From an archaeon (GTDB taxonomy: Archaea > EX4484-52 > B79-G9), in NCBI GenBank assembly GCA_043813875.1, contig JBDRKP010000028.1:1-22777 (forward strand): a DNA stretch of 22,777 nt. The letters are read 5' to 3'. Of this stretch, positions 13,695-19,640 are shown in pieces. The notes beneath the pieces were generated by a model. It saw nothing but the letters and a program-made list of their open reading frames with translations. It had not been told where the DNA came from and searched no databases. Position 1 is the stretch's first letter. Each line of letters starts with the position of its first letter. Both the position numbers and the translations under genes were made by a program.

Positions 13695-14795
13695 ATGGCT
13701 ATAAACATCACACAATCAGGCATTCTGACAAATCAGGTAAACACGCTTACAAGCGGCTACTTCACAGAACTCCAGTTAGAGTTAATCACCGCCATCGCAA
13801 TCCTCATCATATTCCTGATACTCGCAAAACTCTCAGACATAGTCTTTGAACAGGTATTCAAAAAACTCACGCAGAAAACCAAGACAGAGATAGACGACAA
13901 GATAATCAACGTCCTGATGACCCCGATATTCCTGACTGTCACCCTCTTTGGCGTCATAATAGCCTTGAGCACGATAATGGTGCTGGAAAACACAATGGTG
14001 TTCCTCACAAAGATAGCAAAGACGGTCCTCATAATAATATGGACAATAACAGCAGCAAAGATATCGACAATAATCATATATGACGTCCTCGGAAAAGTCA
14101 CAAAAAAGACAAAATCGACACTAGACAACGAGATGCTTCCGCTTTTCCAGAACCTCGCAAAAATAATCATATATTTCCTCGGCCTCACGATGATCCTGAG
14201 TGCATGGCAAATCGACCTCACGCCATTCCTCGCGACAGCAGGAGTAGCAGGTATCGCCATCGCATTCGCGGCCCAGAACACGATATCGCACATATTCGGC
14301 GGCATATCAGTCTACTTCGACAAGCCATTCAAGGTCGGCGACAGGATCCAGCTTGAAAGCGGCGAATACGGGGATGTGACAGAAATAGGGATCAGAAGCA
14401 CACGGATACTCACCCTTGACGAGACAATGATAGTCATACCGAACGACAAGATAGCCAACTCCAAGATAGTCAACTACCATGCCCCCTATTCACGCATGAA
14501 AGTGAAGATGCGCATCGGCGTCGTTTACGGATCAGACGTCGGAAAAGTCAAAAAGACACTATTGAAGGTAGCAAAAAACGCGCCGCACGTATTAAAAAAT
14601 CCTACCCCCGTAGTCCTTTTCGTCGAACACGGCGACTTCAGCCTCCAGTTCCTCCTCATAACGTGGGTCGAGAATCCTATGCTGAAAGGAGATGTGACAG
14701 ATGAACTGAACGTGGGAATAGACAGGGAATTCAGGAAAGAGAAGATAGAAATAGCATTCCCAACCCAGACAATATACACAATAAAAGGAAAATGA
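13695..14795 (+). CDS. mscS: Small-conductance mechanosensitive channel (MscS family, extra N-terminal TMs)
   Basis: Pore helix AGVAGIAIAFAAQNTISHIFGG, PFKVGDRI, GDVTEIGIRST, IPNDKI, GVVYGSD, IEIAFP. Confidence 0.94.
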   Translation: MAINITQSGILTNQVNTLTSGYFTELQLELITAIAILIIFLILAKLSDIVFEQVFKKLTQKTKTEIDDKIINVLMTPIFLTVTLFGVIIALSTIMVLENTMVFLTKIAKTVLIIIWTITAAKISTIIIYDVLGKVTKKTKSTLDNEMLPLFQNLAKIIIYFLGLTMILSAWQIDLTPFLATAGVAGIAIAFAAQNTISHIFGGISVYFDKPFKVGDRIQLESGEYGDVTEIGIRSTRILTLDETMIVIPNDKIANSKIVNYHAPYSRMKVKMRIGVVYGSDVGKVKKTLLKVAKNAPHVLKNPTPVVLFVEHGDFSLQFLLITWVENPMLKGDVTDELNVGIDREFRKEKIEIAFPTQTIYTIKGK

Positions 14796-14799
14796 TACC

Positions 14800-15936
14800 A
14801 TGACCTCAACAAACGCAGAATCAATCAACGCAAAAGACCTCAATCTCCAGGCCCTGACAGCCGACGAAGAGAACGAGATCCTGAAAAACACAGTCTCAGA
14901 ACTCCATAAAGAGCTCGAGAAATACAGGAAAACGCCATACATAGTAGCATCTGTAGTCGACATAATCAATCCCGACGAAGTCGTGATAAGGCTCAACGGC
15001 GGCGACTTCTGCGTAAACGTCGCAAACGACGTAAAAAACAAGATAAAAGTGAACGACCGCGTCCTCGTCGAACAGAAATCACTGACATTAGTAAGAATTA
15101 TCGGCACATCAAAGCACTTCGACGTATCAAACTACATAATCTGCGAAAAGCCCAACATTGACTGGAAAAAGATTGGCGGCCTGAAAAAAGAGATCAACGA
15201 GATAAAAGAAGTGATAGAACTGCCCTTATTGCACCCGGAATTATTCGAACAGGTAGGCATAGACCCGCCAAAAGGCATGCTGCTCTACGGGCCTCCAGGC
15301 ACCGGCAAGACCCTTCTTGCAAAAGCCGCAGCAACAAACACGAACTCAACATTCCTTGAGATAGTAGGCTCAGAACTTGTCCAGAAATTCATCGGGGAAG
15401 GCGCAAAATTCGTCAAATCAATCTTCGATCTTGCAAGAGAAAAAGCCCCGTCAATCATATTCATCGACGAGCTTGACGCCATCGCCGCAAAAAGAATAGA
15501 AGTAGGCACATCCGGCGAACGCGAAGTCCAGCGCACCTTCATGCAGCTCTTATCCGAGATAGACGGCTTCAAGCACCTAGGCAACGTAAAAGTCATCGGC
15601 GCAACCAACCGCTTAGACATCCTGGACCCGGCGATAACAAGGCCAGGCAGGCTCGACCGACTCCTTGAGGTGCCCCTCCCGAACGAAGAAGGAAGATACG
15701 AGATATACAATATACACACATCAAAGATGCACCTTGAAAAAGACGTAAACTTAAAAGAAGTAGCCCGTCTAAGCACAAAGATGTCAGGCGCAGAGATAAA
15801 ATCCGTCTGCACAGAAGCAGGATACTTCGCAATCAGGGAAAAAAAATCCAGCGTAAACATGAGCGAATTCATATCAGCCATAAAGAAAGTGAAAACAGAA
15901 GACAACACGCACAACAACATCCACATGTACGGCTGA
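14800..15936 (+). CDS. pan: Proteasome-activating nucleotidase (AAA+)
   Basis: N-terminal coiled coil plus OB-like region; GPPGTGKT, ELVQKFIGEG pore loop, IIFIDELD, GEREVQRT, ATNRLDILDPAITRPGRLDR, C-terminal HbYX motif MYG. Confidence 0.93.
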   Translation: MTSTNAESINAKDLNLQALTADEENEILKNTVSELHKELEKYRKTPYIVASVVDIINPDEVVIRLNGGDFCVNVANDVKNKIKVNDRVLVEQKSLTLVRIIGTSKHFDVSNYIICEKPNIDWKKIGGLKKEINEIKEVIELPLLHPELFEQVGIDPPKGMLLYGPPGTGKTLLAKAAATNTNSTFLEIVGSELVQKFIGEGAKFVKSIFDLAREKAPSIIFIDELDAIAAKRIEVGTSGEREVQRTFMQLLSEIDGFKHLGNVKVIGATNRLDILDPAITRPGRLDRLLEVPLPNEEGRYEIYNIHTSKMHLEKDVNLKEVARLSTKMSGAEIKSVCTEAGYFAIREKKSSVNMSEFISAIKKVKTEDNTHNNIHMYG

Positions 15937-15994: not shown

Positions 15995-17509
15995 ATGATA
16001 CTGGACGACACGACATACAAGATAGCCATTCTCTTCGTGATACTCCTTGTCGGCTACACCATCTCAAAGATCACAGAAAATCTCATCACATCCGCCTGGA
16101 GAAAGAAATACAGCACAAGCCTCGAAAAAGTGCAGCTGGCCCACATATCAGGCCTGGTAATAAACATCATCACACTCATCATAGCCTTGAGCATCCTGAA
16201 GATAAACATCACAGAAAACACGCTCCTTGAAATATACAATTATATCCCGTTCATTCTATCTATAATACTTCTCGGCGTCCTCATAATTCTCATCGTGAAA
16301 CTGACATTCTACACAATAGATAAATTCATATCCACAAGCGGCATCAAAAGCATAATAGAAGAAAACGACCACGAGGATACACTTGAAACCTTGCTATTGC
16401 TCTTAAGGTACGCCCTCTACATCATCCTCGGCCTGATCGGCCTGAAATCAACAGGCATAAACATAGACTATGCAGTCACTCTGCTAAAGACAATCCTTTA
16501 TCCGCTATTGATATTAGGCCTTGTCCTGTTATTCGTAGGCCTGAAACCATACATCGAGAACTGGTTTTCCGGCCTCTACCTGAAAAACATGAACTTCCTG
16601 AGAGTCGGCGAGCAGGTCAGGATAAAAGAAGACATCTATACCATAGACTCTCTGAAAAAGCAGGGCATAACCCTGAAAGGAAAAACCGACTTCAACACCT
16701 TTGTCCCTTACAAAAAACTATACGAAGACCAACTTCAATACAAAGAGATAATATACGACCTGACCACCCTTGAAAAAATTAAAGACCACTTCCTCGCCCA
16801 GCAGCCAAGCTACTGCGGGCCGGCATCAGCATCGATTATTTTGAAAATCTTCGGCTACAATATCAGCCAGGAAGAGATCGGAAAAGAAGCAAATACATTG
16901 GTTCCGCCGCAAAAAAGACTGGACGGAAAACCGATTCCCGGCGGAACAAGACCCGATAATCTCATAGACACAGTCGAAAGATTGACAGATGACAAAGTGA
17001 AAGGCGCATGGATAAACATCGACAAGATCAACGACCTCAAACTTGAAATAAAGACATGGCTCGACAACAAGGCCCTGGTAATCATTGATTACAAAAAAAG
17101 TTTCCTCTTCCCTGAAGCTGAAAAAGCCCACTATTCAGTCTGCCTTTCGATAAAAGGTGACGAATTGCTCATCCTCGACCCCAGCCTGAAAAAAGGAGGC
17201 GTATATTTCGCAGACATAAAAAAAGTATACTTGGGCATGAACACATACTCTGAATTCCTGAAAGAAAAGAGAGGATACATCGTCCTCGCGCCATTTGGCA
17301 CAACAGCATACCACAGGATTGAAAAAGGTCTCATATACTCCGACCCGAGCCTATACGACAACCTTAACAACAACCTGACAAAAGAACTGGACACCCTTAT
17401 AAAAAAAGCCTCAAAGATAGAAAACATCCTGCCATCCAGCATAAAAAAGACCATCAACGAGTACAAGAAAAAAGAGAAAGTGACCCGCATATGGACGCCG
17501 GGATCATGA
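15995..17509 (+). CDS. Fusion of an MscS-like membrane/beta domain and a C39/phytochelatin-synthase-like cysteine peptidase
   Basis: About 5 TM helices, then YIENWFSGLYL...FLRVGEQVRI...FVPYKKL (MscS beta-domain-like), then QQPSYCGPAS (Cys274), AHYSV (His379), LILDPS (Asp395). Confidence 0.8.
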   Translation: MILDDTTYKIAILFVILLVGYTISKITENLITSAWRKKYSTSLEKVQLAHISGLVINIITLIIALSILKINITENTLLEIYNYIPFILSIILLGVLIILIVKLTFYTIDKFISTSGIKSIIEENDHEDTLETLLLLLRYALYIILGLIGLKSTGINIDYAVTLLKTILYPLLILGLVLLFVGLKPYIENWFSGLYLKNMNFLRVGEQVRIKEDIYTIDSLKKQGITLKGKTDFNTFVPYKKLYEDQLQYKEIIYDLTTLEKIKDHFLAQQPSYCGPASASIILKIFGYNISQEEIGKEANTLVPPQKRLDGKPIPGGTRPDNLIDTVERLTDDKVKGAWINIDKINDLKLEIKTWLDNKALVIIDYKKSFLFPEAEKAHYSVCLSIKGDELLILDPSLKKGGVYFADIKKVYLGMNTYSEFLKEKRGYIVLAPFGTTAYHRIEKGLIYSDPSLYDNLNNNLTKELDTLIKKASKIENILPSSIKKTINEYKKKEKVTRIWTPGS

Positions 17510-17967: not shown

Positions 17968-18288
17968 CTACATCCTGATCCCGCCATAAGAAAGAAGTTC
18001 ACCAAGTTGAGCAAGAATGACCCGATAAAACTCGCGCCCCTCATCAGTAAGGCCATATATCTTCCTTTCTCTTTCCCCCTCATAAGCAAGCCTGACAGCC
18101 ACATATCCCTTCTTCTGCATATTGTTGAGCAGCGGATAGATCTGTCCTGCGCTCAGCTTCTTCCCGGTGACCTTGAAGAAATCAGCCATAAGCTCATATC
18201 CATGCCGGGGAGACTTGTTCAGCGCAACCAGCACATAAAGCTTTGTCAGATTAGTCAGAAACGATTCTTCGGTTTTCATAAAAATCAC
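17968..18288 (-). CDS. PadR-family transcriptional regulator
   Basis: LYVLVALNKSPRHGYELM, SAGQIYPLL, RKIYGLTDEG; start overlaps the ATPase stop (alternative ATG at 18279). Confidence 0.9.
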   Translation of the reverse strand: MIFMKTEESFLTNLTKLYVLVALNKSPRHGYELMADFFKVTGKKLSAGQIYPLLNNMQKKGYVAVRLAYEGERERKIYGLTDEGREFYRVILAQLGELLSYGGIRM

Positions 18289-19640
18289 ATATCCTCCAGA
18301 TCAAATACCAAATAGCCCATTTCTCTTAACTTATCTTTATTCTCTATTTTCTTAGCAATCAGCCCGAAATACTCTCTCCTTTTTCCCGTATTCCAGTCAA
18401 CATAACTGCTTTTTCCAATAAGCTCATCCAATATCTTTTTTGCTTCATCATATTTCAGGCTCTTATATTTGCATTCAAAGAAGCCCATCTCATTTGTTTG
18501 TGCATTTAACGTGACGATATCTATCTCATACTGATTTTTCCCTGCTTCCGCTCCCTTTACTGTCCCCCACTGCCTCCCGATATTCTGGAAACTAAACGGC
18601 AGTGCGTCGCGCTTTTCAACCAAAAACTCACCGCATATTCTCTCAAAAACTCCTCCAAGATAATGACTATATCCTTTCCTGATTTCATCAGACGAAAAGA
18701 TGGCTTCCTCTAAAAAAGAAATATTCGGATTAATAAACCTGAACCAGAAATTCACAAAATTGTCCTTGATATAATACCGCCCTTTCCTAGACTTGGCATT
18801 ATCTATTAAAGGAGTACTCTTTTCAACAAGCTCCACCATAATCAGATTCTTAAGATAAGGTGTTATATCTGTTCCCTTGACACCGATATAGTTTTTAATC
18901 GACCCAAGCTTCGTATTTCCAAAAGCGATAGCCTCAAGTATTTTTTTATAAGTCCCGACATCTGAGAATTCATATTTCATAAGAAAATCTATTTCAGATT
19001 TAAAAAATGTATCAACCTTCTTTAATTCATCATCGAGCCACTTCCAGAACGGTACATCAACCTTCTCTAGATAATAAGGGATACCATCAGAAAAACCATA
19101 TATCTCTATACACTCGATAATTGTAGACTCAGGAAAAAAATCATCCAGTTCCCGAAATTTCAATGCCCTAAGCTTCAACTGGCCTGTTTTTCTTCCATAT
19201 AAAGGAGAATTATAACTCAGGACATAATTTTCCATCATCGATATGGAAGATCCGAGTAAGACCAGTTTTGTCCTTGTACCCTTCAATTGGACATCAACAA
19301 TCCTCTGGAACTCAGAAACAACCTTCGGATTCTCTTTGATGAGATTAGGAAATTCATCAATAATCACAATCTTATCCTTCAAAAAGCTAAAAATAGACTC
19401 TAAATCCTCCTTAGCATACTCCACACGCGGCTCAATCCTTTTGGCAACATCCTTCAGCTTTCTAAGATTATTCTCTTCAGTCGCAAGATAATAGACAAAC
19501 TCTTTATCTTTTACAGATGCAAGCACAAGCGTAGTCTTCCCGACCCTCCTGCGGCCATAGATCACGTAGAACTCAAGATTGGCGCTATCGAGTTTATCTT
19601 TAAGCGCCCGAAGTTCCCTTTTCCTGTTGATGAATTTCAT
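18285..19640 (-). CDS. Archaeal ATPase (ATPase_2/DUF234 type) with C-terminal PD-(D/E)XK-like domain
   Basis: MKFINRKREL, YGRRRVGKT, IIDEFP, LGSS, SPLYGR, GIPYYL, DNFVNFWFRF, EIDIV...FECKY. Confidence 0.92.
   Translation of the reverse strand: MKFINRKRELRALKDKLDSANLEFYVIYGRRRVGKTTLVLASVKDKEFVYYLATEENNLRKLKDVAKRIEPRVEYAKEDLESIFSFLKDKIVIIDEFPNLIKENPKVVSEFQRIVDVQLKGTRTKLVLLGSSISMMENYVLSYNSPLYGRKTGQLKLRALKFRELDDFFPESTIIECIEIYGFSDGIPYYLEKVDVPFWKWLDDELKKVDTFFKSEIDFLMKYEFSDVGTYKKILEAIAFGNTKLGSIKNYIGVKGTDITPYLKNLIMVELVEKSTPLIDNAKSRKGRYYIKDNFVNFWFRFINPNISFLEEAIFSSDEIRKGYSHYLGGVFERICGEFLVEKRDALPFSFQNIGRQWGTVKGAEAGKNQYEIDIVTLNAQTNEMGFFECKYKSLKYDEAKKILDELIGKSSYVDWNTGKRREYFGLIAKKIENKDKLREMGYLVFDLEDM

Follow-up and report, generated by a model that had tools for sequence, protein, structure and literature searches.

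An MscS-type membrane core joined to a papain-fold domain in a protein of DPANN archaea

Described MscS channels are known to carry extra transmembrane (TM) helices, periplasmic domains or ligand-binding modules (for example cyclic-nucleotide-binding or EF-hand domains). A 504-residue protein encoded in the archaeal contig JBDRKP010000028.1 (assembly GCA_043813875.1), whose 22,777 nucleotides form the window analysed here, raises the question of whether the cytoplasmic cage of an MscS-type protein has been exchanged for an enzyme, and of what such an enzyme would do. An earlier note, made from the letters of the window, had read the gene as an MscS-like protein in which a papain-fold cysteine peptidase replaces the usual C-terminal alpha/beta domain. 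We find that this fusion is conserved and confined to DPANN archaea, and that it belongs to two known kinds, the MscS superfamily and the clan-CA peptidases; our searches found no published study of it. The best explanation as a whole, which we hold to be rather probable, is an MscS-type core with an active cytoplasmic papain-fold enzyme that has a second, non-catalytic role.

Membrane core and papain-fold domain

Among 5.8 billion proteins searched, we found 100 homologues of the fusion, at 31–94% identity and mostly 490–530 residues long, from which 60 were picked for spread and full length to form an alignment (A1). The full-length AlphaFold2 (AF2) model of the window protein, with a mean predicted local distance difference test (pLDDT) score of 83.4, contains five long helices (four with the limits given in Table 1 and a fifth at residues 158–198) with which the hydropathy peaks agree, and the beta strands at residues 207–238 come after them. 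When the aligned homologues were scanned singly, 40/60 matched PF00924, the MscS beta domain, and 14/60 matched PF05552; PF21082, the C-terminal alpha/beta domain of MscS, was found in 0/60 at E ≤ 0.001.

The A1 profile matched E. coli MscS (2vv5) with E 2e-10, positions 167–247 lying on MscS 95–175 (TM3 and beta domain), and its positions 7–74 aligned with MscS 28–95 (TM1 and TM2). Because TM1/TM2 and TM3 both align to MscS and are separated in the profile, two helices are inserted between them. The model superposes on chains of MscS, a YnaI-MscS chimera and MscK with Z 11.4–12.0, and all these matches end at residue 250–252; the superposition on 7raz has a root-mean-square deviation (rmsd) of 2.0 over 89 residues (model 163–251), and the YnaI-MscS chimera 9h2s was aligned over model residues 1–251. 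The earlier note's description of about five TM helices and an MscS-type beta domain is therefore borne out at family level, its N terminus does model as MscS up to about residue 251, and the C-terminal alpha/beta domain is missing as claimed. Single-sequence searches of the PDB gave insignificant matches both for the whole protein (best E 0.12) and for residues 250–504 (best E 0.044, to Fis1), and only profile searches gave significant ones. As judged from these alignments, the MscS assignment stands at the level of the family, not from the window protein alone.

The hallmarks of TM3b are widely kept, with Asn189 in 56/60 and Gly193 in 47/60 sequences, as is Gly205 (58/60). The mean number of Lys and Arg residues per loop over the 60 sequences is 5.0, 2.9 and 5.1 on the inner side vs 0.4, 1.3 and 0.3 on the outer side, so that MscS homology and the positive-inside rule together give a predicted topology with the N terminus outside and the C terminus inside.

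Two short MscS chains in the PDB also matched the A1 profile (9sdg, E 2.7e-8; 9bgu, E 0.0034). A search for shorter proteins (30–276 residues) related to residues 1–250 found none. In nanohaloarchaeal genomes we observed core-only MscS paralogues of 285–328 residues that end right past the beta domain (loci L050 2294-3151, L066 2115-3005 and L069 2027-2890 (- strand); also L107 and L114). They adjoin a TrkH gene, a few genes from the fusion, are 24–27% identical to the same genome's fusion over its N-terminal half, and carry PF05552 and PF00924 in the three that were scanned.

The C-terminal half of the window protein scores above the curated cut-offs of PF03412 (26.6 vs 22 bits) and PF13529 (27.1 vs 24 bits; residues 268–396) and narrowly misses that of PF05023, phytochelatin synthase, which we take to be MEROPS family C83 (22.2 vs 24.9 bits). 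Among the homologues, PF13529 is found in 59/60, PF03412 in 51/60 and PF05023, at E ≤ 0.001, in 35/60. The His-x15-Asp spacing, on which the earlier note based its C39-like label, is presumably equal to that of C39. Gln269, Cys274, His379 and Asp395 are invariant in 60/60 sequences, and each aligns with a residue of the same kind in the Nostoc protein Alr0975; Gln269 adds a fourth residue to the complete Cys-His-Asp triad proposed in the earlier note. The Pfam scan also agrees with that note in finding no ATP-binding cassette (ABC) domain in the fusion protein.

In order to place the domain among solved structures, we used a second profile (A2), built from C-terminal halves only of 45 sequences, namely the window protein and 44 of 78 locus proteins chosen for spread. 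It matched Alr0975 with E 6.7e-10 over profile positions 15–173, PeiR with E 0.01 and ComA with E 0.45. The structural ranking comes from a re-alignment of a Foldseek list and an independent search of 48,161 chains, which agree; in the latter the model of the domain alone reached Z 18.0 with PeiR and Z 17.4 with Alr0975. Over both comparisons PeiR (Z 18.0–18.2, rmsd 2.0–2.1, 146–148 residues, 20–21% identity) is tied with Alr0975 (Z 17.4–17.9, rmsd 2.1–2.3, 157–163 residues, 22% identity), and the peptidase domains of PCAT1 and ComA follow with Z 15.5–16.0 and rmsd about 2.1–2.2 over 134–136 residues. The nearest solved relative is thus the phytochelatin-synthase-like Alr0975, tied with PeiR by structure, and a greater distance separates it from the C39 domains found in PCAT1 and ComA. 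The C39-like label of the earlier note holds as far as PF03412, PF13529 and the fold are concerned, but Alr0975 (NsPCS) is the nearer relative.

In the alignment with Alr0975, Lys368 falls on NsPCS Arg173, Lys400 (common, not invariant) on Lys206, and Gly401 stands in place of Tyr207, the NsPCS residue numbers being obtained by counting from His183; Arg426 aligns with a conserved Arg of Alr0975. According to PMC3855540, Arg173 and Lys206 both line the cavity for the second substrate, and AtPCS1 cannot do without the residues that correspond to them; the oxyanion role given to Gln269 is likewise taken from what that paper states for NsPCS Gln64.

The peptidase domain is followed by a tail that is itself conserved in A1, with Trp500 invariant and Leu446, Tyr448, Asp450, Tyr454, Arg498 and Pro502 each kept in at least 90%. 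In the full-length AF2 model the terminal motif forms a strand at residues 496–500 (pLDDT about 72–79), and when the peptidase half is folded alone the same motif is disordered (pLDDT below 50) and has no strand. As the strand forms in the full-length model only, we infer that the Arg-x-Trp-x-Pro strand may pack against the MscS half.

Distribution of the fusion and decay of its catalytic site

When residues 250–504 were run exhaustively against 1.84 billion representatives by HMMER, only 63 proteins matched at E ≤ 0.001 (58 at ≤ 1e-10 and 40 at ≤ 1e-30), nearly all of them about 500 residues long with the domain at about 250–500. Among the short matches that were read, P0110 and P0118 are 5'-truncated and still show the end of the beta domain, and P0136, P0142 and P0152 look like rare stand-alone forms of the peptidase. 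Fusion is the normal state of this peptidase subfamily, which occurs almost only fused.

A cluster of the ESM Atlas holds 73 members, all archaeal and all annotated 'hypothetical protein', and a pattern-seeded scan of 185,579 species genomes gave 102 relatives, of which 80 were kept as loci. Wherever record titles were informative they named DPANN lineages: Nanohalarchaeota/Nanohaloarchaea, Aenigmatarchaeota, Woesearchaeota and Nanoarchaeota/Nanobdellota. The automatic labels 'Methanosarcinales' and 'uncultured archaeon' on some records were distrusted. Public annotations of the homologues read 'C39 family peptidase', 'mechanosensitive ion channel' or 'hypothetical protein'.

Whole-genome searches found the fusion in 11/42 genomes and 2/13 genera of the window's own phylum and in 64/70 genomes of the nanohaloarchaeal phylum (that of G042). 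In the phylum of genome G046, 30/401 sampled genomes had a match, 19 strong and full-length and 11 weak in open reading frames (ORFs) of 148–204 residues, a tally that takes in two unpublished genomes, G471 (strong) and G355 (weak), which enter into no other result. The 11 weak ORFs (e.g. G399:C11:2429-2770) matched with E 1e-12 to 1e-15 over profile positions of about 12–137; they may represent remote kin of the fused domain that occur by themselves.

Full-text literature searches (main texts, supplements aside) found no published account of an MscS-peptidase fusion, and none was found to describe an MscS channel with an enzyme replacing the cytoplasmic cage; as far as these searches reach, no paper characterises the architecture. 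A 2023 classification of papain-like peptidases (PMC10318531) calls C39_2 'single-domain peptidases' and lacks the word 'mechanosensitive', and a preprint on halophilic archaea (10.1101/2023.07.03.547478) names MscS genes and no peptidase.

The complete triad of the window protein holds through most of the family and fails in part of it. When the homologue and HMMER match sets were pooled, the Gln-Cys-His-Asp set was intact in 127/140 scorable sequences and degenerate in 13; when 45 full-length representatives at 50% identity were placed on a quick maximum-likelihood tree, at least four separate changes were needed to account for the 13 degenerate sequences. All three proteins checked from the phylum of the window have an intact site, as do the 10 near-kin loci (L001–L012) without exception and 17/18 proteins checked in the G046 phylum. 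The site is also intact in 77/78 proteins of the pattern-seeded loci, a set that is biased, as the seed pattern contained the CGPA motif. In Nanohaloarchaeota, a census of 64 genomes holding the domain gave 32 intact and 30 degenerate sites and two that could not be scored (30/62 scorable degenerate). The four genomes G042–G045 contributed 4 intact and no degenerate or unscorable sites; 40 fetched matches contributed 28 intact, 12 degenerate (one cut by a contig end and one with a stop codon) and no unscorable ones; and the 20 lowest-scoring genomes contributed no intact sites, 18 degenerate and the 2 unscorable ones.

The degenerate orthologues retain Asp395, Arg441 and Trp500, and nearly all of them retain Glu351 and Trp355. 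Their length and their place in the genome are likewise kept, as are two motifs, Gly402-Val-Tyr and Gly427-Tyr. Mean pairwise identity of the peptidase domain is 62.8% among 26 intact vs 46.6% among 18 degenerate nanohaloarchaeal orthologues, and the domain is the most conserved part of the 26 active proteins; the corresponding values are 52.4% vs 54.6% for TM3 and the beta domain and 57.3% vs 55.4% for the tail. The intact site is thus under strong selection, for which reason an intact-site protein is probably a real enzyme. As the degenerate orthologues keep fold, tail, length and position, the pattern of conservation also points to a catalysis-independent role of the domain.

Residue 426 is Arg in all intact and replaced in all degenerate sequences of the nanohaloarchaeal sets, and because it is lost together with the site it is probably a substrate-binding residue. 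In a group of nanohaloarchaeal decay intermediates (L147, L148, L150, L151 and L065) the Cys is kept and the His has become Asn or Glu (Q-C-N-D, E-C-E-D), with Arg426 already gone.

Possible roles and gene neighbourhood

We propose that the gene product is a DPANN-specific member of the MscS superfamily with its N terminus outside, five TM helices, the last of them equivalent to the pore helix TM3, and a beta domain. Its distal alpha/beta cage is replaced by a cytoplasmic papain-fold domain of the phytochelatin-synthase/C39 neighbourhood, followed by the helical tail, whose last strand appears to fold back on the channel half. With Gln269, Cys274, His379, Asp395 and the co-varying Arg426 all intact, the window protein is read as an active thiol enzyme, predicted to be a membrane-tethered hydrolase or transpeptidase, whose substrate would most likely be a small peptide or amide with a carboxylate rather than a folded protein. 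The second, catalysis-independent role would be that of a cytoplasmic vestibule or regulatory module of the channel. The data show the architecture, the conservation pattern, the taxonomic spread and, through homology and the positive-inside rule, the topology; assembly into heptamers, conduction, enzyme activity and a coupling of the two halves belong to the proposal.

A more far-reaching version, which we regard as doubtful, is a mechanosensitive enzyme. Under a tension-gated pore the cytoplasmic vestibule would be made of seven papain-fold domains, and tension or osmotic state would control access to, or the activity of, a ring of Cys sites cutting an acidic (glutamyl-type) peptide beside the pore, so that turnover of osmolyte or peptide would be coupled to gating; the ring of protease sites suggested in the earlier note would likewise depend on heptamer formation; in about half of the Nanohaloarchaeota the domain would be a pseudoenzyme acting as a ligand-binder. 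If the halves were coupled, the protein would link membrane tension directly to proteolysis or peptide metabolism, and if they were not, it would still show how freely the MscS cage can be exchanged. Either way the gene is near-universal and single-copy in one phylum of very small-genome archaea (64/70) and recurs in other DPANN lineages, and its matched active and inactive orthologues are a natural experiment separating a catalytic from a structural role.

Several points weigh against the reading of the protein as a channel-linked enzyme. The window protein by itself has no MscS Pfam match at E ≤ 1, and BLASTP of the fusion against the neighbouring MscS of the window is not significant (E 3.1–3.2). 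The earlier note had compared ENWFSGLYL...VGEQVRI with that neighbour, and this pairing is one of the two top-scoring local alignments but, at E 3.2 and 19% identity, is not significant alone. The TM3a positions 171–181 are mostly Leu, Phe or Ile, with small residues common only at 170, 173 and 182, so that a conducting heptameric pore is not assured; the Gly/Ala-rich TM3a that lets seven pore helices pack tightly is not found in the fusion, unlike the neighbouring canonical MscS, whose pore helix is Gly/Ala-rich. The geometry of the triad and the docking place of the tail are predictions from alignment, secondary structure and pLDDT. In the neighbour clusters of the loci, no substrate candidate is conserved beside the gene across the family. 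Finally, as about half of the nanohaloarchaeal orthologues (30/62) do without catalysis, enzyme activity may be secondary.

The likeliest of the other explanations starts from the gene neighbourhood. In 28/80 loci, which all belong to the nanohaloarchaeal clade, a divergent RimK-like gene and then a canonical one come after the fusion on its own strand, and the same arrangement is present in 18/18 further nanohaloarchaeal genomes, all of which have degenerate orthologues. The RimK block persists with two different upstream contexts, and further downstream lie genes for a YheC/D-type ATP-grasp protein (14 loci), GCS2 (6), an AstE/AspA-type protein (4) and a 344-residue protein (19). The retropepsin-like gene PF05618 was not found in 4/4 genomes with the fusion-RimK block. 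In two genomes that have the fusion at another place, G046 and that of the window, it lies directly upstream of RimK. The protein could accordingly serve glutamyl-peptide turnover at the membrane, as a counterpart of RimB/RimK or RloABC: the peptidase would trim or bind the oligo- or poly-glutamate product of a RimK-like enzyme, and the MscS part would tie this to osmotic state or glutamate release. RimB is reported to strip glutamates from polyglutamylated RpsF (PMC11957791). RloB is described as having 7 TM helices and a transglutaminase domain, of papain fold, that is inactive; its gene accompanies that of the ATP-grasp protein RloC, in a system with a hypo-osmotic phenotype (PMC12239564). 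The placing of Lys368 and Lys400 on the cavity residues of NsPCS, and of Arg426 on the conserved Arg of Alr0975, would suit such a substrate.

Nevertheless, we consider this explanation unlikely. RimK adjacency is absent in the window and in 50/51 loci that lack the same-strand RimK pair; a RimK profile found neighbours in 29/80 loci, the sole one outside the nanohaloarchaeal clade being L036, where the genes are convergent. In the window's phylum RimK (37/42 genomes) and the fusion (11/42) show no signal of co-occurrence. The nanohaloarchaeal loci are related to one another and show synteny in the flanking genes too. Moreover, catalytically dead orthologues keep the adjacency equally, and it is therefore no argument for cleavage. 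The genome of the window has its RimK pair on contig C34, apart from the fusion and with its own retropepsin-like gene. That contig holds in a row genes for the retropepsin-like protease (PF05618), a divergent RimK-like protein, a canonical RimK and a CBS-pair protein (locus L086 6971-9673, -), a four-gene row that seems to be an archaeal equivalent of what RimB/RimK form in bacteria.

Alternatively, the MscS-like half could be a membrane anchor that tethers and oligomerises the enzyme and has no mechanosensitive conductance. This would fit the lack of the Gly/Ala pattern of canonical pore helices in TM3a and the low conservation of TM1–4, about 34–36% within Nanohaloarchaeota. A mere anchor would not explain why orthologues without catalysis persist as full-length membrane proteins, and the hallmarks of TM3b and the beta domain are kept, with TM3 and the beta domain 52–55% identical in active and dead orthologues alike; we find it improbable.

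The PF03412 matches and the fold shared with PCAT1 and ComA invite the thought that the domain cuts a double-glycine-type leader and that the cargo exits via an MscS-type pore in place of an ABC exporter. The dead variants bring to mind the C39-like domains, likewise inactive, in RTX exporters (3zua, Z 11.1), which have a substrate-binding role. This we judge very unlikely, since by sequence the domain is far nearer Alr0975 than ComA, and at about 180 residues it has phytochelatin-synthase-like decorations, so that more of it aligns with Alr0975 than with C39. In addition, the neighbour clusters hold no small-peptide gene or conserved cargo (ORFs below 70 residues were not called), and an MscS channel has nothing to supply the energy that directed export requires. 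An outward-facing hydrolase that cuts isopeptide bonds of the host's or its own wall, as PeiR would suggest by its top or tied-top structural match, is most improbable of all, as loop charges and MscS homology put the C-terminal half in the cytoplasm and PeiR is weak by sequence beside Alr0975.

The features of the gene and its two upstream neighbours are collected in Table 1.

Table 1 Coordinates of the fusion gene, its predicted parts and the preceding genes, as positions of the window.
Feature	Position	Strand	Basis or remark
Whole ORF, MscS-type core and papain-fold domain	15995..17509	+	ATG start, 504 residues and stop
Residues 1-157, four N-terminal TM helices (5-38, 47-67, 79-115, 127-152), N terminus predicted outside	15995..16465	+	AF2 model, hydropathy, loop charge, MscS/YnaI alignments
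Residues 158-198, fifth TM helix, equivalent of MscS TM3a/TM3b	16466..16588	+	Conservation, profile alignment
Residues 199-250, MscS beta domain, strands 207-238, near-invariant Gly205 just before	16589..16744	+	PF00924 in homologues, profile, structure
Residues 253-436, papain-fold domain of clan CA, resembling phytochelatin synthase and C39	16751..17302	+	PF13529, PF03412; Alr0975 profile; structure Z
Gln269 codon, oxyanion-hole position	16799..16801	+	Invariant 60/60; aligns with the Gln preceding the Alr0975 catalytic Cys
Cys274 codon, predicted nucleophile at start of helix 274-286, motif QQPSYCGPAS	16814..16816	+	Invariance, model, Alr0975 alignment
Lys368 codon, invariant; aligns with NsPCS Arg173 of the second-substrate cavity	17096..17098	+	Alr0975 alignment; PMC3855540
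His379 codon, predicted catalytic base	17129..17131	+	Invariance, Alr0975 alignment
Asp395 codon, third triad member, retained even in degenerate orthologues	17177..17179	+	
Arg426 codon, present in all intact sites, replaced in all degenerate ones	17270..17272	+	
Residues 437-504, conserved tail, helices 437-443, 451-456, 459-478, 481-492	17303..17506	+	
Arg498-x-Trp500-x-Pro502 terminal motif, strand 496-500	17486..17500	+	
Canonical MscS	13695-14795	+	PF21088, PF00924, PF21082; upstream of fusion
Proteasome-activating nucleotidase	14800-15936	+	NF003069, 503 bits; starts 4 bases past canonical MscS

The fusion ORF is the last of three + strand genes in the window, separated from the proteasome-activating nucleotidase gene by an A+T-rich spacer of 58 bases; the source assembly, with a completeness of 91.5%, spans 1.64 Mb on 90 contigs. 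Among public sequencing runs, no RNA run was listed as a match, and the matching DNA runs share at most 0.16 of the sequence words. Outside the window, the order of MscS, nucleotidase and fusion is found only in the close relatives L002 and L004, and we do not take the nucleotidase for a partner. The fusion protein itself gave nothing in a PADLOC scan and no match in an NCBIfam scan (best E 0.3). Beyond it lie, on the - strand, genes for a PadR-type regulator (17968-18288) and, with a 4-base overlap, an ATPase_2/DUF234 protein (18285-19640) that matches the PADLOC candidate defence family PDC-S27 with E 5.8e-40; the pair also adjoins the fusion in L002 and L005, and L006 has the PadR gene alone.

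Other neighbours recur in parts of the family. In five Woesearchaeota-labelled loci (L010, L014, L015, L023 and L026) the gene directly downstream, on the strand of the fusion, encodes a protein of about 620–910 residues that has a CARDB domain and a C-terminal TM segment, and a protein of about 476 residues recurs downstream in nine loci. The window's genome also has a second, stand-alone C39-like ORF of 222 residues on contig C23 (locus L087 3773-4438, -), whose PF13529 match (E 1.9e-11) covers only the N-terminal part of the profile and whose neighbours encode a 740-residue protein without a Pfam match and a T2SSE-type ATPase.

Comparison with known systems

The fusion shares with the MscS family (E. 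coli MscS, YnaI, MscK and MscM) the TM3 pore helix, the Asn/Gly hallmarks of TM3b and the beta domain, and with YnaI the number of five TM helices. It differs in lacking the alpha/beta domain, and hence a canonical cage or C-terminal barrel, in its Leu/Phe-rich TM3a and in the enzyme-fold domain past the beta domain; it is known from sequence and model. The MscS core also ends right past the beta domain in the short forms (9sdg and 9bgu, of 171–174 residues, and the core-only paralogues), but these carry nothing beyond it.

Alr0975, a gamma-glutamylcysteine dipeptidyl transpeptidase of Nostoc, is the best solved relative by sequence and shares the aligned Gln, Cys, His and Asp. The fusion differs from it in having Gly401 at the position of NsPCS Tyr207, in falling below the PF05023 cut-off and in its spacing of His-x15-Asp, as compared with His162-x17-Asp180 in AtPCS1 according to the published passage on that enzyme. 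Furthermore, Alr0975 is described as a soluble dimer (PMC3855540), whereas the fusion is membrane-bound. That DPANN archaea offer a glutathione-type substrate is not established. PeiR, a pseudomurein endoisopeptidase, is alike as the top structural match, with the Z and identity given above, but is an extracellular wall hydrolase, whereas the domain of the fusion is predicted to be cytoplasmic and the relation by sequence is weak (E 0.01).

With the C39 domains of PCAT1 and ComA the fusion has in common the papain fold and the joining of a peptidase to a membrane conduit, and with C39 and inactive C39-like domains taken together the occurrence of active and inactive versions within one architecture. 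It differs from PCAT1 and ComA in the lack of an ABC transporter, in its larger domain, in the weak match to ComA (E 0.45) and in the lack of leader-peptide cargo in the neighbour clusters.

The RimB/RimK and RloABC systems differ from the fusion in that no retropepsin partner adjoins it and in that the RimK link is missing in the window and outside Nanohaloarchaeota. RloB, as described, has 7 TM helices instead of an MscS core, and its domain is predicted to be periplasmic (PMC12239564). Nevertheless, RloABC of Pseudomonas aeruginosa, with its hypo-osmotic phenotype, resembles the nanohaloarchaeal arrangement in that a RimK-like ATP-grasp ligase is encoded together with a membrane protein bearing a domain of the papain superfamily, and the inactive domain reported for RloB has its likeness in the roughly half of nanohaloarchaeal fusions that are inactive.

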